Sequence record: PP216084
Direction: 5' to 3' (one strand)
Source: Escherichia phage vB_EcoS_HZ_ZJUN2
DNA: 64,000 nucleotides
Below, one piece after another: positions 21,649 through 40,768 of this stretch; the first letter of the stretch is position 1; every line of letters begins with the position of its first letter. The notes under the pieces are model-generated. The model had not been told where the DNA came from and did not search any database. It was given only the letters and a program-made list of their open reading frames with translations. A program made the translations under genes and the position numbers.

Positions 21649-22423
21649 TATTATTTTTCTCCAATAGTTCTTTAATCGACAGGATTTCTATCCCATTCGT
21701 TTCGGCTTTCTTATAAGATGAGGAAGAACGTTTTGATTCATCCTCACAGATTAGGTATTTGACGTCTTTGGTAACGGATTTCTTAACCGTATACCCTAGA
21801 CCTTCTAAATAGTTTGTTGCATCCGTTCTATTTGCAAAATCTTGCAAAGATCCGGTAATACATACCGCGATTCCATTTGGCTTGGCAACTAATTCATCCG
21901 TAGTGATAATATTAGCTTTAGTGCCCTTAATACCAGTTGAGAATTTCCACGGTAGTTCGATAACATCCTTGCCTTGTGGGGAATTTAGCCAGGCTTTGTA
22001 ATTTTCTCCAGCCTTGCCGTCAGCCTTCACATCATGGAAGCTAGTGCAATTTTGGGATAATTTCTTTGCTGCAACCTCTCCAATTAGAGGGATTCCTAAA
22101 GAACCGAGAACTGAACCAAAGTCAATGTCTCCGCGAACTTTAGTATTTAATTCGCTAATTAACTTAGCGGCAACCTTGCTACCCACGGCTCTAACCAAAT
22201 CTTCTTCGGTTAGGTAAAATAGTTCTGAAATCTTCGTCAGCTCCAGCTTCTCAATAGTTTTTGGGCCAAAGCCCTTTAACTTCATTTTTGAACAGAAGTT
22301 CTCAATTAACTTGCTTGATTGCGCTGGACAGTTGGACTTATTACGACAGAATAATTGTCCGTTGACAAGATCTAGCTTAGAACCACAAGAGGGACATTGT
22401 GTTGGAATTTCGATTTTCATCAA
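21641..22423 (-). CDS. ligB: NAD-dependent DNA ligase, C-terminal subunit (zinc finger/HhH/BRCT part)
   Basis: N-terminal Cys4 pattern CPSCGSKL…CRNKSNC; follows the adenylation-domain ORF. Confidence 0.7.
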   Translation of the reverse strand: MMKIEIPTQCPSCGSKLDLVNGQLFCRNKSNCPAQSSKLIENFCSKMKLKGFGPKTIEKLELTKISELFYLTEEDLVRAVGSKVAAKLISELNTKVRGDIDFGSVLGSLGIPLIGEVAAKKLSQNCTSFHDVKADGKAGENYKAWLNSPQGKDVIELPWKFSTGIKGTKANIITTDELVAKPNGIAVCITGSLQDFANRTDATNYLEGLGYTVKKSVTKDVKYLICEDESKRSSSSYKKAETNGIEILSIKELLEKNNNV

Positions 22424-22450
22424 ATTTCTTCCTTATCAATTTATATAAAT

Positions 22451-22479
22451 ATTATAGCAAGTATTTAAGCATTTAGCAA
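22451..22479 (-). promoter_or_regulatory. T5-type promoter inside the ligase intergenic region (minus strand)
   Basis: Reverse complement TTGCTA - 17 bp - TATAAT followed by ATTTATATAAATT. Confidence 0.6.
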
Positions 22480-22543
22480 CTACAATTTTAATTAACTTTG
22501 CTTACCCTCGCCATAACTTTCTATCCCTCAACTGAATGATAAT

Positions 22544-22572
22544 AGTATATACCTAAGCGGCGAAAATGTCAA
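22544..22572 (-). promoter_or_regulatory. second sigma70 promoter inside the ligase intergenic region (minus strand)
   Basis: Reverse complement TTGACA - 17 bp - TATACT. Confidence 0.5.
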
Positions 22573-22622
22573 TAACCACTTTATAATTCCGATATGGTAG
22601 ATGGGTAGCAAAGGGTTATGTA

Positions 22623-23597
22623 TTAATCGTATACTCGCTCTACTATGCACGGGATTACACCACCAGCACGAATCACTCGAATCTGGCAACCGATCTCTAG
22701 ATCGAGAGAGTTAATATAATCAACGTTATTAAGAGTTGCTTTAACAATTGTAGCATCATCAATAATTACCGGTTCGAAATAACCAACTGGAGTTACTTTA
22801 CCAGAAGCCCCTACCTGCCATTCAACTTTAGTAAGAGTTGTAATCTCGCCTTCTTCATCCTCTTTAATGGCGAAGGCTCCACGAGGGAATTTATTAGTCC
22901 AGCCTTCACGGAAGAATTTGTTGTTGTCATTAATACGAACAACTTTACCGTCCGTCGGAATCCATTTAAAGAAGGAACGCACATTAACAACTGTTAAGAA
23001 GTTCTCATTCTCTAGCCAAAGCATATCTTTTAAGTATGCTTCTGTAATACCTACAGATTCAGCAGAACATTGGATACCATAAGCAACAAAGATTAAACCG
23101 CCTTCTCCAATGCGTTGTACGAAAGCATCACTATCTTTGAGGTTAATAGCACCAGAGGCAAAGTTACGTTTATTTTCTACTTCTTTTGTAATTAGAACTT
23201 CACCAGTGATTTGAGTAGGTACTTTTTGGGAAATCTTTTTAGGAATATTCAGCAATCTTACGTTGCTTGTGACATCATTCCCCAGAATACCATTACCACG
23301 AGTTAATGCTTGAACAAATTCACCGTTAATATATAATAGAGAAATTGCACAACCATCTAACTTATCAGTTTCTACCTGACCTAAAGGATTAAATGGTGGT
23401 TTATCCCCACGATTATAATAAACTTTCTGTAAAGAATACATACGGTACAGATGTGGAATATCTCCCTTAGGCCCGATCTCTTCTTCTAGTGGGAAGCGTT
23501 TTACCAGGCAATCATACTCCTCATCAGAGATTAAAGACATGCCTTGATAATATGCTTCTTGACAACGCTTAATAAAGCCTCTTACATTATTCATCAT
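22623..23597 (-). CDS. ligA: NAD-dependent DNA ligase, N-terminal adenylation subunit
   Basis: 324 aa; adenylation lysine motif KLDG (…ETDKLDGCAISLLY…). Confidence 0.8.
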   Translation of the reverse strand: MMNNVRGFIKRCQEAYYQGMSLISDEEYDCLVKRFPLEEEIGPKGDIPHLYRMYSLQKVYYNRGDKPPFNPLGQVETDKLDGCAISLLYINGEFVQALTRGNGILGNDVTSNVRLLNIPKKISQKVPTQITGEVLITKEVENKRNFASGAINLKDSDAFVQRIGEGGLIFVAYGIQCSAESVGITEAYLKDMLWLENENFLTVVNVRSFFKWIPTDGKVVRINDNNKFFREGWTNKFPRGAFAIKEDEEGEITTLTKVEWQVGASGKVTPVGYFEPVIIDDATIVKATLNNVDYINSLDLEIGCQIRVIRAGGVIPCIVERVYD

Positions 23598-23787
23598 CGG
23601 CGATTTCCATCTTGAGTTCTTTATTATATTGTGTAACCATGTCCATCAAATCAGCAGATTCTTTCAGAAACGCATCTTTGTACACCTTTTGATTTACTGT
23701 GCCTATGCTATCTTGATAATTAATACGTGCTGTGGAAAGTAGATTAAGTTTTGCTTGAATCTTGGGAAGTGTTACTGTCATTGCCAT
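23587..23787 (-). CDS. hypothetical protein
   Basis: 66-aa ORF. Confidence 0.4.
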   Translation of the reverse strand: MAMTVTLPKIQAKLNLLSTARINYQDSIGTVNQKVYKDAFLKESADLMDMVTQYNKELKMEIADDE

Positions 23788-24060
23788 TCACCGTACCTCA
23801 TATGCTTTAGGCTGTCTAGTGGATCCGTGCCATGTATAATTTTTGCAAAGATGCAAATATGTAGTTTTTACTAGCCTATCCGATAATGGAGAGTATATTT
23901 CAGCTATTAATACTTCTTTTTCGTAATAAAGTGAAATCAGTTTATACCCAGTTCTAGTTTTAGTATACTTTTCCCCATTAATCTTTTCCTCCCACATGAG
24001 TATGAGAGGCTGTCCGATATATGGAAAAGGTTTAAGTGTACTTATATTTATCTTTTTCAC
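23788..24060 (-). CDS. hypothetical protein
   Basis: 90-aa ORF downstream of the promoter at 24091-24119. Confidence 0.45.
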   Translation of the reverse strand: MKKINISTLKPFPYIGQPLILMWEEKINGEKYTKTRTGYKLISLYYEKEVLIAEIYSPLSDRLVKTTYLHLCKNYTWHGSTRQPKAYEVR

Positions 24061-24090
24061 TTTGCAACCCTCTCATTAATTTATATAAAT

Positions 24091-24125: not shown

Positions 24126-24437
24126 TTATTCTTTTTCCGCCAGGCGTTTAGCTTCTTTTTCTACTTCTAATAAAACCTCACTATTAGATAATATTTTAGT
24201 AAATGCCTTAAATAAATGAGATGTTGTTTCTAGAGTGTATGGCATACTGAATCCACTTTTTGTTGGAAACCATTCACCTTCTATATCTTGGAGCCAGTAC
24301 CTAATTCCTAAGTATAGATTCCCCCTAAACTCAGATACAGTTAGCCTAACCTGTTGGCCATCTTCTCTCTCCCAGATAACTATGGACTGATCATCTACAT
24401 GTCCAACATAATCCTGATTTACATTATCTCCTGACAT
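24126..24437 (-). CDS. hypothetical protein
   Basis: 103-aa ORF. Confidence 0.45.
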   Translation of the reverse strand: MSGDNVNQDYVGHVDDQSIVIWEREDGQQVRLTVSEFRGNLYLGIRYWLQDIEGEWFPTKSGFSMPYTLETTSHLFKAFTKILSNSEVLLEVEKEAKRLAEKE

Positions 24438-25084
24438 TTTATTGCTCCCTGACTTAGGAGATATTCCTCTGCCTCCTCTGGTTGAATACTGAAAAACTCA
24501 GTAGAACCGTCAAATATTGACTCTGTAAATATCTGCATACTAGAAAAGAATTGATGGGCTTTATTTTCTAGGGTATATGCAGAGCCTTCATAAGAGTATA
24601 CCCCATATATACTCAGATCCACCAAATTAGAATCTTTTTTAATCTCTTGAAGTCTTCTATCTGGGTTTTTAGATGTTCCTATTTTTGTTCCTAGCTGCGG
24701 GCTATAAAATAGATACAAATAGCTTGTAGCCGCACAGATAGGGCAAGATCTTCTAGCATTTTTAATCTTATCCACGCTGCTAACCCATCTATGTCCTTCT
24801 ACACACTCGAACTCTGCTTGACTACGGGAATTAATATAGGGAGATATAAGTTTTATACCCCTACTGGCTAGCTGTTGGTTTATTTGCTCTACAGTAAGCT
24901 TAGCTTTATTACTACAATGTGGGCAACCACTACCCTTTCTTATATTATTTAGGTAAGCTTTCCATTGGTGGCCCTTTAAGCATTTAAACATGGCTGGTGT
25001 TCTTATGTTAACCCATTCACTTACTATACTAAAGCCTCGTGACTCTAATTCTTTATTTATTTGTTTTGCTGTTAACTTTTTCAC
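24419..25084 (-). CDS. homing-endonuclease-like protein: two zinc-ribbon repeats plus GIY-YIG-superfamily (T5orf172-type) domain
   Basis: Repeats C..GH.W…G.GCP.C; YLYLFYSPQLGTKIGTSKNPDRRLQEI nuclease-like motif; paralogue of 35561-36424. Confidence 0.6.
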   Translation of the reverse strand: MKKLTAKQINKELESRGFSIVSEWVNIRTPAMFKCLKGHQWKAYLNNIRKGSGCPHCSNKAKLTVEQINQQLASRGIKLISPYINSRSQAEFECVEGHRWVSSVDKIKNARRSCPICAATSYLYLFYSPQLGTKIGTSKNPDRRLQEIKKDSNLVDLSIYGVYSYEGSAYTLENKAHQFFSSMQIFTESIFDGSTEFFSIQPEEAEEYLLSQGAIKCQEIM

Positions 25085-25102
25085 TATACTTTATATACAA
25101 CA

Positions 25103-25130
25103 AAGGAGAGCCGAAGCTCTCCTTTTCTTT
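25103..25130. terminator. hairpin terminator (usable on either strand)
   Basis: 9-bp stem AAGGAGAGC/GCTCTCCTT with CGAA loop, T-rich both sides. Confidence 0.6.
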
Positions 25131-25131
25131 A

Positions 25132-25422
25132 CTATTTTTTACCTACTGGCGTAGCTCTATCAAGTTCACTAGACAATGAAGTGATACGTTTTACCTTATT
25201 TACCGGGATGAATCGGAAGCTATCATTAGTACGGCTAAATACTAGAATCTCGTCGTCTTTTGGTTGGCGAATACGCTCCTGGGCGAATCGTTTACTGAGA
25301 TACTTATCAGAAAAGTCCATAGTACCTTGAAGATACGTAGTACCTTTTTGACGTAATTTCTCATAATGAAGGTAGAACTCGTTATGAGCTTCACATGCGG
25401 AGATGATTTCTTGTTTATTCAT
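25132..25422 (-). CDS. hypothetical protein
   Basis: 96-aa ORF. Confidence 0.45.
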   Translation of the reverse strand: MNKQEIISACEAHNEFYLHYEKLRQKGTTYLQGTMDFSDKYLSKRFAQERIRQPKDDEILVFSRTNDSFRFIPVNKVKRITSLSSELDRATPVGKK

Positions 25423-25437
25423 GCAAAAATCCCCTTA

Positions 25438-25848
25438 TTACTTAGTGATAGCTCGGATTGCTTCTGCCAGATGAGCAGCCGCTTTACCGGTCAGTTTGTC
25501 GATAATTGCATCATCCAGAAAATCTGGTGCTAGGCCAGCATCAGAGAATGCTGAACGCAGGTCGGCATGAGCTTGGGCTTTGGAAGTACGAGAACCGCCA
25601 GAAGCTTTTTCTCCAGTAGATGCGCTAGATTTAGAAGCAGAGCCAGCAGCTTTCTTGATATACAAACCTGCTTTAGTCAGCTTCATACGAAAACCGTTCG
25701 GAGTTACACCATTTTCCTGGGCAATTTCGCTAACAATTTCCATGCTAACACCCGGACGTTCATCCTCTGGGAATTGCTCCATACGAGCAACGTATTCGGA
25801 AGACATTTTTTCGAACAGTTCATCAGTCCACTGAGTTGGAGTAGTCAT
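25438..25848 (-). CDS. hypothetical protein (Ser/Ala-rich linker)
   Basis: 136-aa ORF with promoter at 25906-25934. Confidence 0.5.
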   Translation of the reverse strand: MTTPTQWTDELFEKMSSEYVARMEQFPEDERPGVSMEIVSEIAQENGVTPNGFRMKLTKAGLYIKKAAGSASKSSASTGEKASGGSRTSKAQAHADLRSAFSDAGLAPDFLDDAIIDKLTGKAAAHLAEAIRAITK

Positions 25849-25905
25849 ATTTTATATTTCCTTAATTAAGAATTAAACAGAATAGTTCTTTCAAACTATG
25901 AGAAT

Positions 25906-25934
25906 ATTATATCAAGAATTATAGGATTAAGCAA
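25906..25934 (-). promoter_or_regulatory. T5-type promoter (minus strand)
   Basis: Reverse complement TTGCTT - 17 bp - TATAAT. Confidence 0.6.
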
Positions 25935-25951
25935 CTGAAATTTTTCTGTAG

Positions 25952-26227
25952 TTACTCCACCAGGCCAACAGCGAGCATATCATCAATGCTGGCAATCTCC
26001 CAATCGTCGGCAATAGCTTCGCATACTGTTAACGTAACAACCTCACTATAGGGATAATTACCAGCTACCCAGGTATGCTGGGTAACTACATCCAAATCAG
26101 TATCCAAAGTTAATAATACTAAACCGTTATTATCGTTATTCCAACTTTTACGATATAAGGTTTTTGTTTCACCATCTTTCAGTAAATCTGTTAGTTTACT
26201 CACGGCGTTTTCCTTTTTCTTTATCAA
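25952..26227 (-). CDS. hypothetical protein
   Basis: 91-aa ORF; its 5' end overlaps the upstream gene. Confidence 0.4.
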   Translation of the reverse strand: MIKKKENAVSKLTDLLKDGETKTLYRKSWNNDNNGLVLLTLDTDLDVVTQHTWVAGNYPYSEVVTLTVCEAIADDWEIASIDDMLAVGLVE

Positions 26228-26900
26228 GTTTCAGGGCAGCCTTAACAGCTTCGTTAATCAACGTAATAATTTCTTCACGAGTCCATTTATATCCCAGAGA
26301 CTTTACGTCAACCCCTAACTTTTCCAGATGTTTAACAGAAGCCAGCTCGTAATTCATATAATGGACGTTCTGTTGTTTGCCCTCTGATAGAAGCCATACA
26401 CGGTAGCAACCAACAGGATTATCCATTGCTTTTTTGATTTCACCGATACACTGGTATCCAGGAACCCAAACAAGCTCACCAACTGCAAATTCTTCTGCTA
26501 CAGCATCATCAGGAATAATTGGAGGATTCAATGGATCTACAATATCGTTCAAACGAAGTAGAGCACCGTATCGTTCCAGAACAGATTTAACCATTGCTAC
26601 AGAGCGATAATTACGATCGGCAATTTCTTCAAAAGAATCACCAGACAAATACTGCTCAATAACGTTAGCTAACTCAATGCCTTCAATGAGAGTGCCGCGT
26701 TTCTTTTTCTTCATTTCGGCAACTTGAATCTGGCGGTCTTGCCATTCTTCAATCATCCTTTCCATAGTTGGGTTGGACGATACGCCGAGCATTTCACATG
26801 CTGCTTTCTTAGTACCACCGTTCTCCAGATGCTCTATAACCTTTTTAAAGACTTCATCTGGGATTTCATGGATATGTTTCTTTCTACGAGAAACAGCCAT
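26196..26900 (-). CDS. hypothetical protein with N-terminal helix-turn-helix-like segment
   Basis: 234 aa; first gene behind the N25-like promoter. Confidence 0.5.
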   Translation of the reverse strand: MAVSRRKKHIHEIPDEVFKKVIEHLENGGTKKAACEMLGVSSNPTMERMIEEWQDRQIQVAEMKKKKRGTLIEGIELANVIEQYLSGDSFEEIADRNYRSVAMVKSVLERYGALLRLNDIVDPLNPPIIPDDAVAEEFAVGELVWVPGYQCIGEIKKAMDNPVGCYRVWLLSEGKQQNVHYMNYELASVKHLEKLGVDVKSLGYKWTREEIITLINEAVKAALKLDKEKGKRRE

Positions 26901-26931
26901 ATTTAAACTCCTCTCTCAAATTTATGAATCT

Positions 26932-26960
26932 ATTATACAGAAATTTTTTGCACTATGCAA
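26932..26960 (-). promoter_or_regulatory. strong early promoter closely resembling the classical T5 N25 promoter
   Basis: Reverse complement AAAAATTTATTTGCAT - 17 bp - TATAAT then AGATTCATAAATTTGAGAGAGGAG, near-identical to the published N25 -10/downstream region as I recall it. Confidence 0.7.
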
Positions 26961-26968
26961 ATAAATTT

Positions 26969-27211
26969 TTACGATTCCTTGAGCAAAGAAGCAAGTTCAG
27001 CATAGACTTTATCTAACTCAAAGCCGATGCGAAGAGACACGTTTGTTTTCCGTTGTTTAAGTAACCACTCGGATATGTTAGGGATGCCAGCTAGTCTAGC
27101 AGGAACCACCCTACATAGCTTTTCCGAAGTATCATAAACAGGAACTTTACGTTCTTTTACTGGAAACTTCCTTGTTTCCCATTTTTTATTATTCACTGTC
27201 ATTTCTAGCAC
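26969..27211 (-). CDS. hypothetical protein
   Basis: 80-aa ORF. Confidence 0.4.
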   Translation of the reverse strand: MLEMTVNNKKWETRKFPVKERKVPVYDTSEKLCRVVPARLAGIPNISEWLLKQRKTNVSLRIGFELDKVYAELASLLKES

Positions 27212-29975
27212 CTAGCTCTGACATTGCTTCTTCTGCCATAGCCTTCTCTTCCTCTGTCATGAATTTGAAAGGAATTGGCATACACTCGATTTTACAATAG
27301 GTTCTGTACCAGTCTACGATATTCTCCGTGTTCATATCTTTACCAATACCCATCATACCAAGATACATTCTAGCATATTTTGGGTTAGCACTCTGGCCTG
27401 TTTTAAGGAAGAAATCCTTTTTCTTACCTTTTAGAGCTTCTATGAATGGTTTAATGGTTACATTTGAACACTTCTTAATGTCTTCCCAGAACATCTCGTG
27501 CATCTTATGAAAGAATGCAGCTCGATCATTTGGTTTATCTTTGATATATTGTTCAACATGCTCAACTGTTACATCTTTAATAGACTCAAGATGATAATAG
27601 CGAACAATAAGTAGTTTAGCTTCATACGCATCAGCATGACGTGGAGCACAATAATCCGGAGTTGAATGTAGAATAGCTTTGATTCGCTCTTCCGTATACT
27701 CTTTTCCTGCACCTTCGATAGTTCCCCAGCTTTCACTGAAAATATCAATAGTTGCACCCTGATCAAGCAAGTAATAGCGTAGAGTACTAGTATAGTTTCT
27801 AGATTCCAGCTCCCTGCGACGTGCATATAGTTGCTGTGCTAACTCCAGCCAACCCTCATCAATGTTATATTGCTCAGAACCTGCGGAGAATCCACTCGTA
27901 GATTTATCAATAAAATAATAAATGTTCTGAGCGCCACGGTCGCGCCTGATTGCTTGGAAACGCATGTTTGGCGCTTGGTTTGAGGTTCTAGTGATAACGA
28001 ATACGTTATCAAAATAGTTGAAGTCAACACCACTAGTTACGGATGGACTACATAATAAGCAATCAATTTGTTGGTCAATTAGCTCATTAGTTGTGTAATC
28101 CAGGATACGTCGAATATCTACATCAGACGTAGAGTTTGAATGGATTTCCTTAACTAACGCACCCGTATTACGACGCAATGCCATGCCCTTCTCATTCAGT
28201 TCATCAGGGCCACAATCAGATACCAGAATAGATTTCTCCCCCATCTCTAGAGAAGTCTGAAGTGCAACCCAAATACTGGATTCGTCAGGGAATTCATAAG
28301 CATGAGCTTTTGATAGCATCTTACGGTGATGATTATAAAATGCTACTGGTTTATCAAAATCAATTAGAGAACCATATGCTTCAATAGTTTCGGCACTAAT
28401 ATCACCATCTGATAGAATCACAGTTTTAGCTGTCATGAGGATGTCACGTAGAACTTGAATACATTCGCGACGTTGTTTAACAACTGGGGCGAATAATAGA
28501 TCATTCATTACAGCGTCACATTCATCAATAAAGATGGTGTCTATTTGACCAATAAAACTTTTGAACTTATGCAAAGAGTGAATAGTTGTGGACATACGAT
28601 CAATAGCCCCACGTTTAAAGTTGAGCATATCTACAGACTTATCATATTGTCCTGCGCTAAATTTCTTAGCGTTTGAAGATACCAGCGCTCTAGTATTTGT
28701 AACTGCTAAAAAGTTGCCAGGAAGAACACCTGCGTCCAGCCATTTAGTTACTGCCGTAGTTTTACCAGTACCAAGACTTGCCTTAACAAAGGTTATGTGG
28801 CCTTTTGGAGGCACAATGTTAATCTTCAGGTATGGAACTTCTGGTGGAGAATCCACTTCTAATTTCTTGAGTGGAACACCCTTCAGATTTAATGGAATCT
28901 CACGTTTAGAATTATTAACAAACGCTTTGAGAGCCTGCTTACGACCGTTATTAAAGTAATCTTGAATATTACGACTGTTATCTTTAGTTGCAATATATTC
29001 AGATAAAGCGGGTTTAATCTCACGTTCTAGCCATGCGAAATCAACACCATCCTCTAATGCTCTATGGTATAGTTTAGGGATAATACGCAAGTACACCCCA
29101 TCCTCAGCTTCTTCCAATTCGCTGATAGTTTCTTCTACTTTATCAGACGCGATCTTTTTGCCTTTAATTTGGTCAAGTAAGGAATAGAATTCCTCTTTGA
29201 ACTCCCCTCTAGTTGTTTCATAGTCAACCAGATTATTAGGCAAATTTACCTTCGAACCTTTAACATACACCAGACGTGGCTTACTCTCCGCTTTAAACGG
29301 ATCAACAATACCATCACTAAATAAAGGATCGGCAAAATAATGGAGCTGGACAGATGAATAATAAGCTAAGTCGGCAATGTCAAAACCGAATTTTTGCTTA
29401 CTACTATCATTGATAGACGTAAATAAGAACTTTAACTGACCTTGAGTTACCTTGACGTTAGATTCTAGCATTAAGTGCATTCGGATACCTGGTTTTAGGC
29501 CAGCCGAAGACGATGCATGAGCAATAAATCCTGCATCAAGAGGAAACATGTCCTCACTAATACTATTCAACATCTTAATAATGTGGCGGGCCATACCTAC
29601 AAGATTAAACTTGTCGTATCCACCGGTATCTAGGATACCATCCACGTCCATAGCAATAATATTGCTATGGTTGGATACATTAAAGTTACCTTTCTTACGC
29701 CGCACGTTATTTTTAGGTGCAAGACATCGACCTCGTACCGCAACGATATGAGGGTCTGACGTTAAACGTCTCATAAGAGGTAACATTTCGGCAAGGCTTT
29801 GCGGGTCATGCTCTTCTATTACATCAAATTTGAATGGCATAGAGGCTGGTTTACCTTCTGGATGCTCTTTCGAGAATCGCTTGGCAAAGGTATAATCTTC
29901 CGCTTTGATTTCTCGCCAAATACCTGTTGCTAAATCGCGAGAAAATCCGGCGTGACCTTGAAGAATAGAAAACAC
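27189..29975 (-). CDS. large P-loop NTPase, putative replication-initiation/origin-binding helicase
   Basis: 928 aa; Walker A SLGTGKTTAV, Walker B TIFIDECDAV. Confidence 0.6.
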   Translation of the reverse strand: MFSILQGHAGFSRDLATGIWREIKAEDYTFAKRFSKEHPEGKPASMPFKFDVIEEHDPQSLAEMLPLMRRLTSDPHIVAVRGRCLAPKNNVRRKKGNFNVSNHSNIIAMDVDGILDTGGYDKFNLVGMARHIIKMLNSISEDMFPLDAGFIAHASSSAGLKPGIRMHLMLESNVKVTQGQLKFLFTSINDSSKQKFGFDIADLAYYSSVQLHYFADPLFSDGIVDPFKAESKPRLVYVKGSKVNLPNNLVDYETTRGEFKEEFYSLLDQIKGKKIASDKVEETISELEEAEDGVYLRIIPKLYHRALEDGVDFAWLEREIKPALSEYIATKDNSRNIQDYFNNGRKQALKAFVNNSKREIPLNLKGVPLKKLEVDSPPEVPYLKINIVPPKGHITFVKASLGTGKTTAVTKWLDAGVLPGNFLAVTNTRALVSSNAKKFSAGQYDKSVDMLNFKRGAIDRMSTTIHSLHKFKSFIGQIDTIFIDECDAVMNDLLFAPVVKQRRECIQVLRDILMTAKTVILSDGDISAETIEAYGSLIDFDKPVAFYNHHRKMLSKAHAYEFPDESSIWVALQTSLEMGEKSILVSDCGPDELNEKGMALRRNTGALVKEIHSNSTSDVDIRRILDYTTNELIDQQIDCLLCSPSVTSGVDFNYFDNVFVITRTSNQAPNMRFQAIRRDRGAQNIYYFIDKSTSGFSAGSEQYNIDEGWLELAQQLYARRRELESRNYTSTLRYYLLDQGATIDIFSESWGTIEGAGKEYTEERIKAILHSTPDYCAPRHADAYEAKLLIVRYYHLESIKDVTVEHVEQYIKDKPNDRAAFFHKMHEMFWEDIKKCSNVTIKPFIEALKGKKKDFFLKTGQSANPKYARMYLGMMGIGKDMNTENIVDWYRTYCKIECMPIPFKFMTEEEKAMAEEAMSELGARNDSE

Positions 29976-30473
29976 AACAATACTCCTGTGTTGGTTAATC
30001 GAAAATCTTTTCTTTAGGACTATTCAGAAAGAATAGAACAACTATTACTACTATTTACGTAAACATCAATTATCATCAAGCAATATGAATAAGTTATCAT
30101 ATCTCAGTGCTGTGCTCTCTTCGCTCATATACAGAATAGAACCTAGGTCATTGGCCGCTAAGCCGATTCTATTTGTCCTCACTATCCTATTGGTAGGTGA
30201 CTACTGTACGTGCCGCCATTCGCTGCTCTTTTCGTTCGCACCCCCATATAAAGCTCTGCCTATATAACGAGCTAAATATGCACGGTTTGGATTTACCTTT
30301 CCGAATTCAGGGTACACAGATCACTTAATTGAAGATTAACTAATGCAATATAAACACTAGTAATAGTTAAAACAACCCTTAATGGGGCAGCCTAACTGTT
30401 CCGTATCGCGGATTGTAAACAAGAAAAATTAGCAAAATCAATTTTTACTAATGTCTCTCAATTCAATATAAAT

Positions 30474-30502
30474 ATTATATCAAGATTTTGGGCATCATGC
30501 AA
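30474..30502 (-). promoter_or_regulatory. T5-type promoter (minus strand), about 490 nt upstream of the NTPase gene
   Basis: Reverse complement TTGCAT - 17 bp - TATAAT followed by ATTTATATTGAATTGAGAG. Confidence 0.55.
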
Positions 30503-30593
30503 GTAAATTTTTCCCAAAGGTGCTATCAGTGTCTTTGAGCATAGAGAAAACCGAGCCAAAATGACTCGGTAATCAGAGTTCAGCTAATAAAAA

Positions 30594-30986
30594 TCATTTG
30601 TCATTTAGGCCTGGAACATAGATCCCAACACGGTTTAATTGTTCTTTAGCTTCTTTGAGAATATCTGGAGTGTATTCCCAAATATCATCTTCCACCTGTA
30701 AAAGATGGGGCGAACAACCGTCATCCGGCACACGACATATGGCCAAACCACGTGGATGGAATATAGAGAAGTTTAGGGCAACAATCAAGCCCATAGCAGA
30801 CAATTCATTCCAATCCAATTCCCATTCCCCGGCGTATCCAGACAGGAAAACACCAACACAGGGATCATCTGTTTGCTGCTCAGGAAAAGTGAAGGAGGCT
30901 TGTCTTACCCCCAACCAACGTTGTAGCAGCTTTTCCGCACGCTTCACCAAACTAGGGTCAATCTGACGCCAAAATACTTGTTCCAT
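30594..30986 (-). CDS. hypothetical protein, paralogue A of a tandem pair
   Basis: 130 aa; shares PC(V/I)G…W.EL..MGL..ALN…PGL pattern with 30996-31424. Confidence 0.5.
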   Translation of the reverse strand: MEQVFWRQIDPSLVKRAEKLLQRWLGVRQASFTFPEQQTDDPCVGVFLSGYAGEWELDWNELSAMGLIVALNFSIFHPRGLAICRVPDDGCSPHLLQVEDDIWEYTPDILKEAKEQLNRVGIYVPGLNDK

Positions 30987-30995
30987 TCTGCCTCC

Positions 30996-31424
30996 TTAAG
31001 CAGTTAAACCTGGGATCATATACCCGAAACGTCGAAGTTTCTGAATCCCCTCATTTACTTCTTCCGGTGAGTAAGACCAACCATAACGTTCATTAACTTG
31101 AAAACCAGGAGATTCACTAGTTTTATAGTTAACAACGAGGCGATGCTTAGCAGGCATAAACAGCTTATAGTTTAACGCAAAAACTAAGCCCATTTCATCT
31201 AACTCTTTCCAGCCGACAATCTCTTCAAGACCATCCTCTACCTGAACAATTAAACCAATACAGGGAGCCTCATCAATATCATCTTTAAAGGCAAAGGAGA
31301 TTTCGTTATTCTCACACCATATTTTCAAAGAGTTAATAGCCTCATTATACAGGCTAGCCGGGAGAGTACGCCAAAAGTTAACCAAAATTGGGTTAGCTTC
31401 TTTAGAGAATACATTATTGAACAT
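30996..31424 (-). CDS. hypothetical protein, paralogue B of a tandem pair
   Basis: 142 aa; see paralogue A. Confidence 0.5.
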   Translation of the reverse strand: MFNNVFSKEANPILVNFWRTLPASLYNEAINSLKIWCENNEISFAFKDDIDEAPCIGLIVQVEDGLEEIVGWKELDEMGLVFALNYKLFMPAKHRLVVNYKTSESPGFQVNERYGWSYSPEEVNEGIQKLRRFGYMIPGLTA

Positions 31425-31426
31425 AT

Positions 31427-31933
31427 TTACACCTTAAATTGCTGTAAGGATTTACACATTTCAAGATCTGGGCTAAATTCTAGCATATAGCTAACAGCTT
31501 TTAAATCTTGAAGATTTATCCCAGTCCTACCGTTGACTATAACCGTTGGATACTGATACATCATAGCACCCGCATCATCAAGCACACACCAATGTTTGAG
31601 CTTATGCTTTTCAACGAAGCGAAGAACAGAATTACCCCTAGATAATCCACCCCCAGTAAAATCCGTTGTACCAAGAAAACGATCGATAAGACCTAATCCG
31701 GTCATAATCCGAACGTTCTCCATCTCATTTCTAACAGAGAACCAAGATGATACTCCAACAATCATTATCGGAGAAAGACGAATAAAGTCCTGAAAAGCCT
31801 TGAGAAGCGGTTTGAAAACCCAGTCACTTCCAAAGAAAATCTTTTCATCATCAGGTGCATGATGGTGGGAGATGCTCGAATTGAGCACTCCATCAATGTC
31901 CAGAAAAATAATTGGAGTATTACTTATTTCCAT
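31427..31933 (-). CDS. HAD-superfamily hydrolase-like protein (possible nucleotidase/phosphatase)
   Basis: N-terminal FLDIDGVLN (HAD motif I, DxDG). Confidence 0.5.
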   Translation of the reverse strand: MEISNTPIIFLDIDGVLNSSISHHHAPDDEKIFFGSDWVFKPLLKAFQDFIRLSPIMIVGVSSWFSVRNEMENVRIMTGLGLIDRFLGTTDFTGGGLSRGNSVLRFVEKHKLKHWCVLDDAGAMMYQYPTVIVNGRTGINLQDLKAVSYMLEFSPDLEMCKSLQQFKV

Positions 31934-32102
31934 TTTTGTTCCTTTCTAAGAACGTATCATACTCAACCGTATCAACATATATAACACCATAGTCATCGGA
32001 TTTATAGTCCATTTCCCACAGCTCACAGCGATAGCACCAACTACCATCCGCCCATACAAATATATCATCGGGATGTGTATAAACAGATTTAACTATGGAC
32101 AT
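31920..32102 (-). CDS. small hypothetical protein (WCYR-motif family, copy 1)
   Basis: 60 aa; DDIFVWADGSWCYRCEL. Confidence 0.4.
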   Translation of the reverse strand: MSIVKSVYTHPDDIFVWADGSWCYRCELWEMDYKSDDYGVIYVDTVEYDTFLERNKNGNK

Positions 32103-32278
32103 ATCTGTTTCTCCTCATCTCCAGAGGATAACCATATATTATCCGTAGTATAGATAATTTTATATGTGTTGCCTAATCTTTCTTTTACATTAGGAAATCT
32201 ATAGGCAAACCTATAACACCAAGTGCCAGACTCAGTTATAAAAATATCCCATTCATTATTTCTTGCTTCTCGACACAT
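32093..32278 (-). CDS. small hypothetical protein (WCYR-motif family, copy 2)
   Basis: 61 aa; WDIFITESGTWCYRFAY. Confidence 0.4.
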   Translation of the reverse strand: MCREARNNEWDIFITESGTWCYRFAYRFPNVKERLGNTYKIIYTTDNIWLSSGDEEKQICP

Positions 32279-33074
32279 AAGGTCTACCCTCTAAATGAGC
32301 TTCTACACGAGCAATAAAATCAGGGTCACTGAAAGCATCCACCGCACCTTTACTCCAGTAAGGGACACCACGTTCTTCTAGCTGGTACATCTCACTACGA
32401 GTCATACCTTGATAGCCCGGTTCCGCCGCTAGGGCACTATCGTAGTAGTTAACAACCATAAGTTTCGCAGCAGTCAAATTAAGAACAGGAAATAATTCCC
32501 AGTAGAAGTTAATTACTTGGTTAGAGCAACCAACCACAATGATCATATCTTGACTGGTAATACCATCAAAAACATTATACATTTCTGTGTATGCAGGAGC
32601 ATGCTCCCCAAAGAATATTACATTAGGTTTAACCCATTTATAATCATCTGGATCAATAGACTTGTACCCTACATCAATAATCCGTTTATTGCTACTATTA
32701 TAGCTATCAGCTACAACAACCTCTTTTAAATATCCATGAATGTGTAGAATATCACTATGTGGAACGCCAGCACGCTCAATAAGGTCATCAACGTTGGTAG
32801 TCAAGTTTACTACTTGACCTGGATATTGTTTATACCATTCACCAATACGCAAATGCGCAAGATTGGGTTCAACAGTTTTTAGCTCTTCACGACGCTTGTT
32901 GTAAAACATATGGGTTTTATGATAAAAATTACCACGAAAGGCGTGAATATTACATACTTCTTCTAGATCATAATCATCCCACAGTGCTTTACCACTAGCA
33001 GTATCAGTACGAAAAGCTCGTACACCACTTTCAACACTCAAACCTGCACCGCTAATAACAATTAATCTACGCAC
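32256..33074 (-). CDS. Sir2-like (sirtuin-fold) NAD-binding protein
   Basis: GAGLSVESGVRAFR, TTNVDDL and HIHG motifs match the sirtuin NAD-binding/catalytic signature; no zinc-ribbon cysteines. Confidence 0.6.
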   Translation of the reverse strand: MRRLIVISGAGLSVESGVRAFRTDTASGKALWDDYDLEEVCNIHAFRGNFYHKTHMFYNKRREELKTVEPNLAHLRIGEWYKQYPGQVVNLTTNVDDLIERAGVPHSDILHIHGYLKEVVVADSYNSSNKRIIDVGYKSIDPDDYKWVKPNVIFFGEHAPAYTEMYNVFDGITSQDMIIVVGCSNQVINFYWELFPVLNLTAAKLMVVNYYDSALAAEPGYQGMTRSEMYQLEERGVPYWSKGAVDAFSDPDFIARVEAHLEGRPYVSRSKK

Positions 33075-33268
33075 TATACGATTCCTCGCTTAAGTCCTTC
33101 GATAATATCTCGGAGTAAAATTGCTTCCTCCTGGCGTACCTTTTCTTGCTTAATAAGCATATCCAATCCAGCAATACAACTAGTTACACCAGCATTATAA
33201 CCAGAGTTCCATTGCTCAATGAGCATGTTTTCTATATTACTTTTTAGATTCGGCTTCGAGAATGCCAT
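33074..33268 (-). CDS. hypothetical protein
   Basis: 64-aa ORF. Confidence 0.4.
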   Translation of the reverse strand: MAFSKPNLKSNIENMLIEQWNSGYNAGVTSCIAGLDMLIKQEKVRQEEAILLRDIIEGLKRGIV

Positions 33269-33440
33269 AAAGTTTCTCCTCTAGTTCCATAACACGATTT
33301 TCATAAGAGGCACGCAACTTTTCAATTGCCAGCGCACGCACTGTAACCTCATTAGAATTAATAGCTAATTGGGCCAGGTCTTCTGTTTCCATACGTCCGT
33401 TGTAAATTAAGCGATATTTAAGATGTTTTACGTTTTTCAT
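33237..33440 (-). CDS. hypothetical protein
   Basis: 67-aa ORF. Confidence 0.4.
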   Translation of the reverse strand: MKNVKHLKYRLIYNGRMETEDLAQLAINSNEVTVRALAIEKLRASYENRVMELEEKLYGILEAESKK

Positions 33441-33649
33441 TCTTGTTCCTCAAACATTTCAATTTCTGCATTAGCAATAGAAAGGGCGGGCTCAGATAAG
33501 CACAATCCCGCCCTAGGATCAATCTTCACTTCGTCCATCCAAGTATTTACTAAACATAATTTAGTTATGTCCTCACGGAGAATGGAACCATATGCCCCAG
33601 AATCCATAATAAAATAGATACGTTCTTTATCTACCTTGTGAACTCTCAT
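33437..33649 (-). CDS. hypothetical protein
   Basis: 70-aa ORF behind the promoter at 33678-33706. Confidence 0.45.
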   Translation of the reverse strand: MRVHKVDKERIYFIMDSGAYGSILREDITKLCLVNTWMDEVKIDPRAGLCLSEPALSIANAEIEMFEEQE

Positions 33650-33677
33650 ATCTTTCTCCCATCAAATTTATAAATCT

Positions 33678-33706
33678 ATTATATATAAATTTTTGGCTGA
33701 AAGCAA
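33678..33706 (-). promoter_or_regulatory. T5-type promoter (minus strand)
   Basis: Reverse complement TTGCTT - 17 bp - TATAAT followed by AGATTTATAAATTTGATGGGAG. Confidence 0.6.
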
Positions 33707-33747
33707 ATAAAATAAAAGCCAGGTCGACTAGCAACCCGGCTTTTATT

Positions 33748-35574
33748 TTATTTAAGATTTAAGTGCTTTACTCTACCAAGTACTTCTTTTTGTTTCCCAG
33801 AATTGAATGGTCTACTGCCAGGAGACCCAAGATACCCACAAACCCTACGTGTAACTTCTATATCTTCAGATCCACAACTAGGGCATACAAAACCACGTTC
33901 AGAGGCAATAGACTCACCCATATATCCACAGTTAAAGCACTCATCAATAGGTATGTTAACACCAATATAGTGGCTGCATTCCAATCCCTTATCTACTACA
34001 TATTCAAGAGCTTTAGGGAATTTTTTCATCTGCGGCAACTCTACAAAAGAAATATTACCACCATTAGCTATTTTAGTAAAATGAGCCTCGTACTCAAATT
34101 TAATATCTGGGGCTACTTTTTCCCTTACGTCTAAATGATGACTATTAGTAAGATACCCTTTATCAGTTAGCCAGGAGTATTCTGGGAATCTATGTTCTAG
34201 TAACTTATTAAAGCGATTACATAGAGACTCACTAGGAGTAGCATACAGACTAAACCCAAGATTAGTCTCATTAGCCTTAATTTCACAACGATTTTTTAAG
34301 TGAGTAAGAACTTCTTCCGTAAATTCAATACAATCCCTATGAGTTTGTGGTAATCCAAACATTATTTGGCACATCTCATATACCCCAATATATCCGAGAG
34401 ATACAGAAGATCTACCCTCAAAAATAGGCCAGACGTATTCCTCCGCACCCAAACGTACACCAAAACCTCCGTGCATATATAGAATAGGGGCTTGTTTAGC
34501 TTTTACTTTCTTCAGCCTACCCAAGAAAAAATCATGTGCTTCAAAAGCCTCATCTACATACTTATCCAGAATATCCCAGAAATCTTCAAAAACTCCATCC
34601 GCTTCTGCAGCAACCATAGGTAGATTAATAGATACTACACCAAGATTATTACGTCCTGCAACTTCGCCAGAAGGGATAGCGGATAAAAAACTACGACAAC
34701 CCATAGGGGCTTTAAAATCGCCAGTAACAGCTACAACCTTCTCATAGCTTAAATAATCTGGATACATACGTGTAGCGGAACATTCAAGTGCTAGCTGTTT
34801 TATATCATAGTTAGGATCCCCTGGATTTTTGTTTAATCCTTCTTTAACTGAGAATACTAATTTGGGGAAGATAGGGGTTGACTCAGCAGCTCCCAAACCT
34901 TTAATACGATTTTGAAGAATGGCTTTTTGAATCATTCTTTCCTCCCACTCTTGTCCCAGACCAAAGCCCAGAGTAACAAAGGGAGTCTGCCCATTAGAGT
35001 TAAATAACGAATTGGTTTCATACTCTAGAGCCTGGAATGCATCATAACATTCTTTTTCAGTAAGTTCAGTAGCATATACAGCAGCTTTTCTTTCATCCTT
35101 AAGCCAACGTAGGCCACGCCCCAGATGTTTATTGTAGGACTTCCTAACATACGGAGCTAGAACTTCATCAATACGATCAATGGAAGTACCACCATACTGA
35201 GCACCTGATACTTGAGCAATAATCTGAGCAGTAATCGCACATGCAGTAGTTATGGATTTAGGAGTTTCAATATTCGCATTACCAATTTTAGTGCCATTTT
35301 TCAACATACCGCCTAGGTCTACTAAACAACAGTTAGTGTACCCCTGCGCCCTATAATCCATATCATGGATATGTATTTTACCTAGATTATGGGCGTCTAA
35401 TAAATGTTTAGGTAATTCTTGTGATACTAAATACTTGTTGATTTCTCCAGCTAGTAAGTCCCTCTGCGTATGAAACATCTCGCTAGGTTTATTAGCATTA
35501 TTATGCTGCAAGTCTTTGTCAGCAGTTAGAGTAAGTAAACCTTTGCAATTTTCAATTAGTTCATTTTCTGTCAT
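33748..35574 (-). CDS. nrdD: anaerobic ribonucleoside-triphosphate reductase (class III)
   Basis: 608 aa; C-terminal zinc ribbon C..C…CPSCG and glycyl-radical motif RVCGYLG. Confidence 0.85.
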   Translation of the reverse strand: MTENELIENCKGLLTLTADKDLQHNNANKPSEMFHTQRDLLAGEINKYLVSQELPKHLLDAHNLGKIHIHDMDYRAQGYTNCCLVDLGGMLKNGTKIGNANIETPKSITTACAITAQIIAQVSGAQYGGTSIDRIDEVLAPYVRKSYNKHLGRGLRWLKDERKAAVYATELTEKECYDAFQALEYETNSLFNSNGQTPFVTLGFGLGQEWEERMIQKAILQNRIKGLGAAESTPIFPKLVFSVKEGLNKNPGDPNYDIKQLALECSATRMYPDYLSYEKVVAVTGDFKAPMGCRSFLSAIPSGEVAGRNNLGVVSINLPMVAAEADGVFEDFWDILDKYVDEAFEAHDFFLGRLKKVKAKQAPILYMHGGFGVRLGAEEYVWPIFEGRSSVSLGYIGVYEMCQIMFGLPQTHRDCIEFTEEVLTHLKNRCEIKANETNLGFSLYATPSESLCNRFNKLLEHRFPEYSWLTDKGYLTNSHHLDVREKVAPDIKFEYEAHFTKIANGGNISFVELPQMKKFPKALEYVVDKGLECSHYIGVNIPIDECFNCGYMGESIASERGFVCPSCGSEDIEVTRRVCGYLGSPGSRPFNSGKQKEVLGRVKHLNLK

Positions 35575-36424
35575 TGATTATTTCCTCGATAAATTTTATA
35601 GCTACTTCTGGCTCAATATTGAAGAATTCCGTAGCACCATCAAAATCTTTGTATTGGCAATTCTGTTCTTTAAAGTAATTATGGGCTAATTTTTCGATTT
35701 GAACTGCATCACTATATTCTCCAATTTCAAATACTTTAATTACTTCCAGATCAGTAAGGTGACTACTAGATTTAATATGTAAAAGTCTACGCTCTGGATT
35801 GTTAGACCTACCTATTTTAACACCATGTGAAGGGCTATGCATAATATATACCTTAGTATTTTCTAAATCCCTATATTTACAGTAAGGACAACCATTTCCT
35901 CCTAACACGGATCCTGGAGTAGCTTCCCACTGGTGCCCTGCACCACAGAGAAAGGTGGTCTTAGTATTTGCATTACTATATTCACCTACTATTCTAATAT
36001 TCCTAGCAGTAAGACGATCGTTTATATTATTAATACTAAGTTTTTGTTTACTAATAGCACAAGATGGGCAGCCACTACCTCTATTGATTATACTATTAAG
36101 TGTAGTAGACCACTCATGACCACAAACACACCTAAATTTAGTATTTATATCGGCACTATTTTTATAGCCCTCCAACAATGTAATACCACGGCCCTGTAAT
36201 ACAGTATTAATTTTATCAATATCTAGTTTACGGCTATTAATAGAACAAGTAGGACAATTGGTCTTTCCATTCCTAATAGCATCAAATTTAGATGTCCATT
36301 GATGACCATATTCACACTGATACGTATGCCTATACCTAGAATTTTGATAAGGCTTATCCACCATAGTAAAACCACGTTCGGCTAGGCATTTATCCACTTC
36401 TTCTTGAGTTAATTTTTTCGGCAT
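35561..36424 (-). CDS. homing-endonuclease-like protein: three zinc-ribbon repeats plus GIY-YIG-superfamily (T5orf172-type) domain
   Basis: Start set at the MPKK ATG (36424) with GGAGAAGAGG RBS; three C..GH.W…G.GCP.C repeats; VYIMHSPSHGVKIGRSNNPERRLLHI. Confidence 0.6.
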   Translation of the reverse strand: MPKKLTQEEVDKCLAERGFTMVDKPYQNSRYRHTYQCEYGHQWTSKFDAIRNGKTNCPTCSINSRKLDIDKINTVLQGRGITLLEGYKNSADINTKFRCVCGHEWSTTLNSIINRGSGCPSCAISKQKLSINNINDRLTARNIRIVGEYSNANTKTTFLCGAGHQWEATPGSVLGGNGCPYCKYRDLENTKVYIMHSPSHGVKIGRSNNPERRLLHIKSSSHLTDLEVIKVFEIGEYSDAVQIEKLAHNYFKEQNCQYKDFDGATEFFNIEPEVAIKFIEEIINDRK

Positions 36425-36452: not shown

Positions 36453-36481
36453 ATTATACTAAACATTATCCACTATGTCAA
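36453..36481 (-). promoter_or_regulatory. consensus sigma70 promoter (minus strand)
   Basis: Reverse complement TTGACA - 17 bp - TATAAT. Confidence 0.65.
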
Positions 36482-40249: not shown

Positions 40250-40768
40250 GTGAAACCTAAACTAACAAAAGAATTTCTAGAGAAATATCTAGAACTTAGA
40301 GAAGATACTCTCTATTGGAAGCCAAGAGAGACTAATAAAGGTGGATTTAACACTAGATTTGCGGGAAAACCTGTAGGGGCCGTCAATGGAAATGGCTACC
40401 TATGCTTCCGACTTAATGTGGAAGGTTATAGATGGGAATTAAGAAATCATGTAGTAATCTACTGTCTCTATTATGGGTATTACCCAACTAAGACAGTAGA
40501 CCACAAAGATACAAATAAACTTAATAACCATCCTTTAAATCTACGAGAATCAACCGATGCTGGTAATGCTCAAAATAGGGGAGCCGGTAAGAATAATACC
40601 CATGGACATAAAAACCTAGAGCCTCTTAGTTCAGGAAACTGGAGGGTTAGGATAACACACAACGGTACTGTTTACAGATCTTCCGCAATGCCTCTAGAAA
40701 AAGCTCTAGAACATAGAGATATTAAACTTAAAGAATTTCATGGCGAATATGCTAACAATGGAGAATAA
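40250..40768 (+). CDS. HNH homing endonuclease with AP2-like domain
   Basis: GTG start; VDHKDTNKLNNHPLNLR HNH motif; C-terminal AP2-like WRVRI…ALEHRD segment. Confidence 0.7.
   Translation: MKPKLTKEFLEKYLELREDTLYWKPRETNKGGFNTRFAGKPVGAVNGNGYLCFRLNVEGYRWELRNHVVIYCLYYGYYPTKTVDHKDTNKLNNHPLNLRESTDAGNAQNRGAGKNNTHGHKNLEPLSSGNWRVRITHNGTVYRSSAMPLEKALEHRDIKLKEFHGEYANNGE

Follow-up and report, generated by a model that had tools for sequence, protein, structure and literature searches.

Two paralogous T5orf172-type genes with tandem zinc modules as putative free-standing homing endonuclease genes in a T5-like Escherichia phage

Two paralogous genes of the T5-like phage vB_EcoS_HZ_ZJUN2 (Demerecviridae), here called gene A and gene B, are best explained as resident, free-standing homing endonuclease genes (HEGs) that belong, within the GIY-YIG superfamily, to the T5orf172 branch, and we give this reading a probability of roughly 0.8. 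The analysis was done on a window of 64,000 nucleotides, which is the whole stretch of record PP216084 under study. Both genes are intact and well-formed members of a selfish nuclease gene family that is ordinary in T5-like phages. The family has already been published: its members are T5orf172 HEGs whose zinc fingers are repeated, and they are enriched in T5-like phages and lie beside ribonucleotide reductase genes. Near-identical genes carry a prior annotation as putative homing endonucleases. The features of the two loci are given below.

24126..24437, minus strand: PC4-like ssDNA-binding regulator gene (T5.115 homologue; Pfam PC4)
24419..25084, minus strand: gene A, free-standing T5orf172-type endonuclease gene, 221 aa with a GTG start (ORF, Pfam and PHROG)
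24422..24730, minus strand: T5orf172/MUG113 nuclease domain (GIY-YIG superfamily) of gene A (Pfam and alignment with ICP1 Odn)
24731..25084, minus strand: two zinc modules of gene A, aa 1-59 and 60-118 (two DUF4379 stretches and module alignment)
25102..25125, minus strand: terminator, a 10-bp hairpin that closes the T5.114 homologue upstream; the GTG of gene A follows after 18 nt
33748..35574, minus strand: nrdD, allele linked to gene B, its DNA about 68% identical to T5 nrdD with flanks at 93-96%
35561..36424, minus strand: gene B, free-standing T5orf172-type endonuclease gene, 287 aa (ORF, Pfam and PHROG)
35564..35869, minus strand: T5orf172/MUG113 nuclease domain (GIY-YIG superfamily) of gene B
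35870..36424, minus strand: three zinc modules of gene B, aa 1-62, 63-124 and 125-185 (three DUF4379 stretches and module alignment)
36453..36481, minus strand: sigma-70 consensus promoter, TTGACA-17-TATAAT, a perfect 12/12 match

Both reading frames named in the initial annotation were recovered at their positions by the ORF check, and their description as paralogues was borne out by BLASTP (35% identity over 217 aa, E 7e-45), in which the internal repeats of the two proteins were visible as extra off-register matches. No third paralogue was found by tblastn within the 64-kb window. PHROG 681 ('endonuclease') was matched by gene A at E 2e-50 and by gene B at E 2e-66, and NCBIfam gave no model for either protein. 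The 666-nt CDS of gene A is also annotated, as 'endonuclease', in SP01, fp01 and NR01, and in SelmaRatti and JLBYU43 gene B bears the annotation 'putative homing endonuclease' or 'GIY-YIG nuclease family protein'.

The C-terminal domain was assigned through Pfam, where a protein counts as a member once its score exceeds the curated gathering threshold for that family, and this was so for every family reported here. Gene A scored 44.1 bits for MUG113 (PF13455, cut-off 22.3) and 29.8 bits for T5orf172 (PF10544, cut-off 20); gene B scored 47.3 and 46.6 bits, and the T5orf172 E-values were 5e-12 for gene B and 9e-7 for gene A. The domain is predicted to take the GIY-YIG fold, a three-stranded sheet flanked by helices. 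Its motif residues are Y124, K134-I-G136, R144, E173 and E196 in gene A and Y193, K203-I-G205, R213, E244 and E266 in gene B, and an alignment of 30 homologues shows little or no variation at the Y, K-I-G, R, E and E. The catalytic Arg of helix 1 and Glu of helix 2, for which I-TevI R27 and E75 and Odn E180 are the references, are kept in both genes (R213 and E244 of gene B, R144 and E173 of gene A align with the Arg and E180 of Odn), so the lack of catalytic residues that had been named as a ground for giving up the nuclease reading was not observed. Odn of phage ICP1, a T5orf172 nuclease for whose cleavage this Arg and Glu have been shown to be required, cleaves DNA in vitro, and the change E180A abolishes this activity (PMC8263062). 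The two tyrosines of the classical GIY-YIG motif are not both present; the first is kept (Y193 in gene B, Y124 in gene A) and the second is Lys, with K-I-G common to A, B and every aligned homologue. This Lys is no argument against activity, since it is usual in the aligned T5orf172 proteins including the active Odn. The helix-1 His/Tyr of GIY-YIG was not evident in the domain of A or B. Searching the nuclease-domain profile against PDB sequences by hmmsearch gave chance matches only, e.g. Nup98, and hhalign of the profile with an approximate I-TevI sequence gave no significant match; the tie to the GIY-YIG superfamily rests on the fold match, the Pfam assignment and published alignments.

The nuclease domain is preceded by tandem zinc modules of the form C-x3-H...C-P-x-C, two in gene A and three in gene B, which agrees with the two or three modules initially described. 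DUF4379 (treble-clef zinc finger) was matched at 40.1 bits in two stretches of gene A and at 54.5 bits in three stretches of gene B (Pfam cut-off 24.5), and the CapR homology domain at 31.9 and 42.7 bits respectively (cut-off 24.2). When the five modules were aligned, K4, L5, L14, R17, N28, C37, G40, H41, W43, C57, P58 and C60 were invariant, and on these residues the claimed motif C..GH.W...GCP.C is correct; the repeat unit, which had been put at about 45 aa, is in fact of 59-62 aa and comprises a helix, a beta-hairpin and a zinc knuckle. The zinc ligands C, H, C and C, by which DUF4379/CapR modules are recognised, are invariant in 5/5 modules and were predicted from the alignment as C35/H39/C54/C57 and C94/H98/C114/C117 in gene A and as C37/H41/C57/C60, C99/H103/C119/C122 and C160/H164/C179/C182 in gene B. 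The AF2 model of gene B has three repeats, each with a helix and strands, and phmmer of gene B against PDB returned just a marginal DUF4379 match (E 0.25). In the CapR zinc finger, the Cys residues are required for DNA binding; its ligands are arranged as CxxC...CxC, unlike those of the A and B modules.

Each gene is packed closely against its downstream neighbour. The final 19 nt of gene A overlap the start of the PC4-like gene, and neither a promoter-like site nor a good Shine-Dalgarno sequence was found upstream of gene A; relatives without the HEG have a different hairpin in place of the terminator at 25102..25125. At the other locus the final 14 nt of gene B overlap the start of nrdD, whose Shine-Dalgarno sequence (GAGGA) is located inside the C-terminal codons of gene B. 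The placement of gene B between nrdD and phoH in the initial annotation stands, but the consensus promoter before it is not its own, as relatives lacking the gene keep it. This promoter is conserved in Gostya9, HildyBeyeler and NR01, and T5 has an annotated nrdD promoter at the matching position, directly ahead of nrdD. The idea that the promoter was imported along with gene B was rejected because Gostya9 and HildyBeyeler possess it without the gene, and it is therefore the promoter of the nrdD operon. No further minus-strand promoter-like site was found between it and nrdD, which probably makes gene B the first cistron on the transcript that carries nrdD.

The distribution of both genes among relatives is sporadic, contrary to the syntenic presence in all relatives that would have spoken against mobility. 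Intact gene B occurs in 26 records (about 17 phages) among some 440-445 T5-like records and gene A in 13 records (about 8 phages) among some 440, each always at the same locus, and T5 has neither. The intact three-module gene is one of several states of the B site. A divergent two-module allele is found there in NR01 and also in ESCO40 and Kenya-K20; HildyBeyeler has an internal deletion that leaves the start codon and the last ~210 nt; Gostya9 retains a degenerate remnant, and T5 has a clean empty site. Judged from these sequences, the variants would be stages of the invasion and decay cycle of an HEG.

In every carrier examined, A and B are full length and free of frameshifts and stops. Purifying selection was found on both genes (dN/dS 0.11-0.19 for B and 0.13-0.25 for A, with 0.01-0.08 for neighbour genes) and on both domains of each, the nuclease domain alone having an omega of 0.09-0.28; pseudogene status was rejected on the dN/dS values. 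Tight linkage was seen between each HEG and its downstream neighbour (nrdD for B, the PC4-like gene for A), which is present as a very divergent allele. The PC4-like gene of the window belongs to an allele strictly linked to gene A, and this allele is bimodal, as 13 records with at least 98.3% identity are the gene-A carriers and 508 records have at most 73.3%. The 5' end of nrdD of the window type is present in only 50 records, with an HEG or its remnant in every one examined. Compared with phage 2-3, identity is 96-99% over the HEG and the first ~470 nt of nrdD and falls to 83-92% in the remaining nrdD, and the pattern is reversed in comparison with SESL, which places recombination breakpoints inside the 5' part of nrdD at ~35100 and ~35400 (200-470 nt into the gene). 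Signs of flanking co-conversion and of the invasion-decay cycle, by which the HEG class is recognised, were both observed. Mosaicism is widespread in T5-like genomes, and the breakpoints beside the HEGs could therefore be ordinary recombination. Among the gene-A carriers the HEG has a dS of 0.5-0.7 against 0.03-0.05 for the linked PC4-like allele, and gene-A copies differ by up to 16% where the PC4-like allele is almost identical; given this dS contrast, simple joint movement of the two as a single unit is no explanation. The two-state downstream alleles suggest where each enzyme would cut.

The sporadic presence, the deleted remnants, the alternative alleles and the nearby breakpoints all support the mobile, homing-endonuclease-like reading first proposed. 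The 'intron-less alleles' mentioned with it is a wrong term, since the genes are free-standing and no intron is involved. In the mechanism we propose, the N-terminal C-H-C-C arrays of ~60-aa modules would bind DNA over an extended site in the manner of 'beads on a string', and the C-terminal T5orf172 domain would cut nearby by its conserved Arg and Glu. During mixed infection with a relative lacking the gene, the enzyme would cut the rival genome in the homologous locus or close to it, probably in the T5-type allele of the next gene downstream or in the junction. Through repair by recombination, the HEG would then be copied into the rival together with the adjoining resistant allele, that is, the nrdD 5' region for B and the PC4-like gene for A. 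That the modules bind DNA, that the enzymes cut, where their targets lie and that homing takes place is what we infer from the sequences and their relatives; in the literature on T5-like T5orf172 genes, we found no demonstrated cleavage, target site or homing, and Barth et al. (PMC10448857) state that homing of the ICP1 members is unverified as well.

It may also be asked whether A and B are domesticated conflict nucleases that keep out rival T5-like phages or destroy satellite or host elements, in the way Odn acts on PLE. Odn is a precedent for such repurposing of a T5orf172 nuclease, both genes are under clear purifying selection, gene B lies first behind a perfect early-type promoter, and the T5orf172 domain has weak matches to the candidate defence family PDC-S57; these PADLOC matches are domain-level and were insufficient for a defence-system call. 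We regard this role as improbable, because the carriers make up a few per cent of T5-like phages and decayed copies exist, where a valuable weapon would be commoner, and because the DNA-binding part is a generic HEG zinc array and, unlike that of Odn, no mimic of the binding protein of a known target. The idea partly overlaps with homing, as cutting the homologous locus of a rival is mechanistically intronless homing.

Still less probable is that the proteins are sequence-specific DNA-binding regulators which, like CapR, have ceased to cut and which might tune the nrdD operon or the early region. CapR, a PLE repressor acting through its zinc finger, derives from the same HEG family, I-TevI autorepresses its own gene, and gene B sits between the promoter and nrdD with translational linkage to nrdD. 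However, CapR has no nuclease domain, whereas in A and B this domain is present in full, has all the conserved catalytic positions and shows purifying selection of its own (omega as above), and most T5-like phages run the same operons without A or B. An equally small chance is given to A and B being decaying relics of earlier invasions with no present activity, for which the deleted and degenerate copies in relatives could be cited, as well as the GTG start of gene A, directly behind a terminator and lacking an obvious Shine-Dalgarno sequence. Weak expression signals are usual among phage HEGs, though, and the undisrupted reading frames in all carriers examined, the intact motif residues and a dN/dS well below 1 in pairs with dS up to 0.7 speak against decay.

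Among known systems, the free-standing GIY-YIG endonucleases SegA-G of T4 and the intron-encoded I-TevI are associated with intronless homing, marker exclusion and co-conversion. The nuclease domain of A and B is C-terminal and not N-terminal as in that group, and is of another GIY-YIG subfamily (K-I-G in place of Y-I-G); DNA would be bound through tandem 60-aa zinc modules instead of a zinc finger, minor-groove helix and helix-turn-helix. Odn (ICP1 gp88; Barth et al. 2021, PMC8263062) is homologous in its T5orf172 domain, with Tyr, K-[IV]-G, Arg, Glu E180 and the C-terminal E-x-F aligning, but its DNA-binding part is RepA_N-like and copied from the target satellite, whereas A and B have a zinc-module array; Odn is also an origin-directed anti-satellite weapon, and A and B are putative homing genes. 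The closest likeness is to the T5orf172 HEGs with repeated zinc-finger domains (CapR/DUF723/DUF4379) of ICP1, T5-like, Plateaulake and VpaJT-like phages (Barth, Dunham and Seed 2023, PMC10448857), as far as the available text of that article describes them. They have the same N-terminal repeated zinc modules and C-terminal T5orf172 domain, T5-like phages are named there as enriched, and they too lie next to ribonucleotide reductase genes, vary in their presence, show in-frame deletions and are positioned at boundaries of genetic exchange. Within that text, no difference in kind was seen, and A and B are particular members at two loci that were not found named in it; what is added locally is that each gene is strictly linked to a divergent allele downstream and overlaps the ribosome-binding site of the downstream gene.

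The zinc array is not confined to this nuclease class. PHROG 559, HNH endonucleases with a zinc array, matches the module regions of A (E 9e-19) and B (E 3.5e-29), and annotated 'Hef-like' homing endonucleases of Campylobacter, Bacillus and Lactobacillus phages match residues 1-185 only; the catalytic domain there is HNH and in A and B T5orf172. These matches indicate a targeting array common to several nuclease classes, and in other homologues it is joined to canonical GIY-YIG (PF01541) or to Vsr-like DUF559. The number of modules, two in A and three in B, rises to about eight in homologues. A bolder and rather unlikely proposal is that the modules form a combinatorial DNA-reading array, joined in nature to no fewer than four kinds of nuclease (T5orf172, canonical GIY-YIG, HNH and Vsr-like DUF559), in which each module reads one sub-site and the module count sets the target length. 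If it is true and the specificity of the modules can be separated and predicted, the array would offer a new programmable scaffold for DNA targeting. More modestly, each HEG may form one cassette with its resistant downstream allele, which would pinpoint the cleavage target.

The two genes represent a genuine selfish nuclease gene family that is recognisable from raw sequence. E. coli K-12 supports the growth of both carriers and non-carriers, and available pairs include, from BASEL, SelmaRatti, which has both A and B, and HildyBeyeler, which lacks them; going by the available literature on the family, homing by a T5orf172 endonuclease could be tested directly for the first time with such pairs.

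Genes A and B, two paralogous free-standing T5orf172-type endonuclease genes, were analyzed together with their neighbours, and the following features are considered.

24126-24437, minus strand: PC4-like gene (ssDNA-binding regulator), downstream of gene A
24419-25084, minus strand: gene A, 221 aa, GTG start
25125..25102, minus strand: 10-bp hairpin terminator, directly ahead of gene A
35561-36424, minus strand: gene B, 287 aa
36481..36453, minus strand: perfect promoter, upstream of gene B
40250-40768, plus strand: HNH_3 ORF, 172 aa (Pfam HNH_3, E 1.4e-10), between nrdA and nrdB

The two proteins are 35% identical (E 7e-45), with off-register matches exposing internal repeats; no third paralogue was found in a search across the window. 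Pfam models above their curated cut-offs gave DUF4379 (treble-clef zinc finger) in two stretches of A and three of B, the CapR homology domain in both, and T5orf172 with MUG113 at both C-terminal ends, while PHROG 681 ‘endonuclease’ covers both proteins in full length. Together with the ORFs and the A/B match, this bears out the initial annotation of two ORFs with zinc modules and a C-terminal nuclease-like domain. Its repeat motif is also correct in the alignment of five modules, but the unit is ~60 aa and not 45: the modules are 59-62 aa long, with K4, L5, L14, R17, N28, C37, G40, H41, W43, C57, P58 and C60 invariant in all five. The true start of gene B is the ATG at 36424, which has the ribosome-binding region GGAGAAGAGGA; the other ATG, upstream at 36466, is part of the promoter -10 hexamer.

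The membership of both nuclease domains in the GIY-YIG superfamily is supported by a fold match, the Pfam models and a published alignment, and rests on these since sequence-only profile searches gave no link to solved GIY-YIG structures. The AlphaFold2 model of gene B, built from an alignment of 30 homologues, has a mean pLDDT of 87 and a pTM of 0.47, a low value that would be expected of beads folding independently along a flexible string. Y193, K203, G205, R213, E244, G263, T265 and E266 (B numbering) are invariant or nearly so among homologues. In the alignment with ICP1 Odn (gp88), E180 of ‘DTEQRIH’ corresponds to E244 of B (‘QIEKLAH’) and E173 of A (‘TLENKAH’), and the Arg and the K-[IV]-G motif are aligned as well. 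Odn has in vitro DNA cleavage activity, which is lost in the E180A mutant (PMC8263062); Cys mutants of the zinc finger in the related protein CapR were impaired in repression of the target operon, an effect that the CapR authors ascribe to lost DNA binding.

By DNA searches of the phage collection, the window belongs to a T5-like phage (Demerecviridae, Markadamsvirinae), with Salmonella phages SESL, SP3 and SP01 as best matches (~95% identity at the loci examined) and the T5 gene order kept (split NAD ligase, D2/D3, T5.114/T5.115, replication-origin-binding protein, Sir2-like gene, nrdD, phoH, nrdA, nrdB). The NAD-dependent DNA ligase (21641-23597, minus strand) forms two ORFs ~200 bp apart, ligA (22623-23597) and ligB (21641-22423); it is likewise annotated as split in T5, where the spacer bears promoters.

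Against ~445 T5-like records matching the surrounding region, a central 621-nt stretch of gene B was found in 26, representing 17 distinct phages after merging GenBank/RefSeq duplicates. For gene A the count is 13 records (six complete phages and fragment records), and T5 has neither gene. Short ‘Listeria phage LM 4-...’ records (OR849466.1, OR847187.1, OR848434.1) hold T5-like sequence of gene A, the PC4-like gene and nrdD, which suggests that mislabelling or contamination has brought these fragments into the public collection.

Comparison of insertion sites showed gene B absent, decayed or replaced depending on the relative, and universal synteny was not seen. HildyBeyeler has ATGCCGAAAA joined to the last ~210 nt of gene B, Gostya9 a degenerate 3′ remnant, NR01 a divergent two-module allele, and ESCO40, Kenya-K20 and NG_A1 other alleles (44-48% identical), while the T5 site is clean and has a promoter and Shine-Dalgarno sequence of its own. 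These intact, remnant, alternative and clean alleles read as a full series of invasion, decay, loss and re-invasion. Gene B runs 14 nt into nrdD, whose Shine-Dalgarno GAGGA is formed by Glu-Glu codons near the gene B C-terminus (35561-35600, minus strand), so precise excision would delete the nrdD ribosome-binding site; this accounts for how the ‘empty’ alleles look, as the 3′ end is kept in relatives that lost gene B. The promoter, initially assigned to gene B itself, is also kept in relatives without gene B and has the same position as the annotated T5 nrdD promoter. The claim of an own promoter is thus refuted; the promoter is that of the operon, with gene B placed between it and nrdD, and the two genes are probably co-transcribed from this strong promoter.

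Allele linkage was found at both sites. Around gene B the flanks are 93-96% identical to T5 and nrdD only ~68%. The first 586 nt of nrdD matched only 50 records by megablast; the best 15 all carry a homing-endonuclease gene (HEG), and the remaining ones examined carry a HEG or its remnant. Across T5-like phages the PC4-like allele is two-state, being at least 98.3% identical in 13 records, the gene-A carriers, and at most 73.3% in 508 others, with none in between. Among carriers, gene A copies differ by up to 16% beside a nearly identical PC4-like allele, and dS is 0.5-0.8 for gene A and upstream T5.114 versus 0.03-0.05 for the PC4-like allele. Gene A overlaps the PC4-like start by 19 nt and holds its Shine-Dalgarno (GGGAG) in its C-terminal codons (24419-24450, minus strand), so precise excision would delete this ribosome-binding site too. 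The upstream terminator, the GTG start and the failure to find a clear Shine-Dalgarno sequence or promoter upstream suggest low expression by read-through, presumably common for phage HEGs. Nearby, segments 23594-24070 and 25894-26194, with small ORFs (23587-23787, 23788-24060, 25952-26227), show replacement or an identity of just 60-70% in relatives that otherwise match at 97-100% in the surrounding sequence, and look like small swap-in cassettes.

Sliding identity between the window and phage 2-3 is 96-99% over the HEG and ~470 nt at the start of nrdD, dropping to 83-92% thereafter, and SESL gives the opposite pattern, a mosaic that would be expected of co-conversion tracts and agrees with the published idea of nuclease genes at exchange boundaries. 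Nei-Gojobori omega is 0.11-0.19 for gene B and 0.13-0.25 for gene A, alike in zinc and nuclease parts, and 0.00-0.08 for nrdD, phoH, D3, T5.114 and T5.115; the A and B proteins are maintained, less strictly than essential genes.

The HNH_3 ORF is a third homing-endonuclease-like gene of another family, occupying the slot of T5 hegH (T5.095) with no DNA similarity to it. Further mobile elements lie in this ribonucleotide reductase cluster in relatives: SelmaRatti has an intein in nrdA (L012 4571-5821), and in phage 2-3 a gene annotated as a homing endonuclease separates phoH from nrdA (L014 4594-5079); the window has neither.

The homing-endonuclease interpretation of A and B, proposed initially, is supported by sporadic presence, remnants, alternative alleles, allele linkage and Odn-aligned catalytic residues. 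Elements of this kind have been described before. Barth, Dunham and Seed 2023 report repeated CapR, DUF723 or DUF4379 zinc fingers in T5orf172 HEGs (200/229 genes), list the T5-like phages as one of the enriched lineages, find ribonucleotide reductase genes in 33% of T5orf172 gene neighbourhoods, describe variable presence, in-frame deletions, domain shuffling and recombination-boundary position, and state that homing lacks experimental verification (PMC10448857). The zinc array is shared with HNH nucleases (PHROG 559, annotated ‘Hef-like’ genes) and, by precomputed Pfam domains of homologues, with canonical GIY-YIG and Vsr-like DUF559 nucleases. Gene B homologues are already annotated as ‘putative homing endonuclease’ in SelmaRatti, ‘putative GIY-YIG nuclease family protein’ in JLBYU43 (98.6% identical protein) and ‘endonuclease’ in RefSeq. 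Of most use among the side results is a specific predicted cut location for each putative enzyme, for which suitable phage pairs are available.
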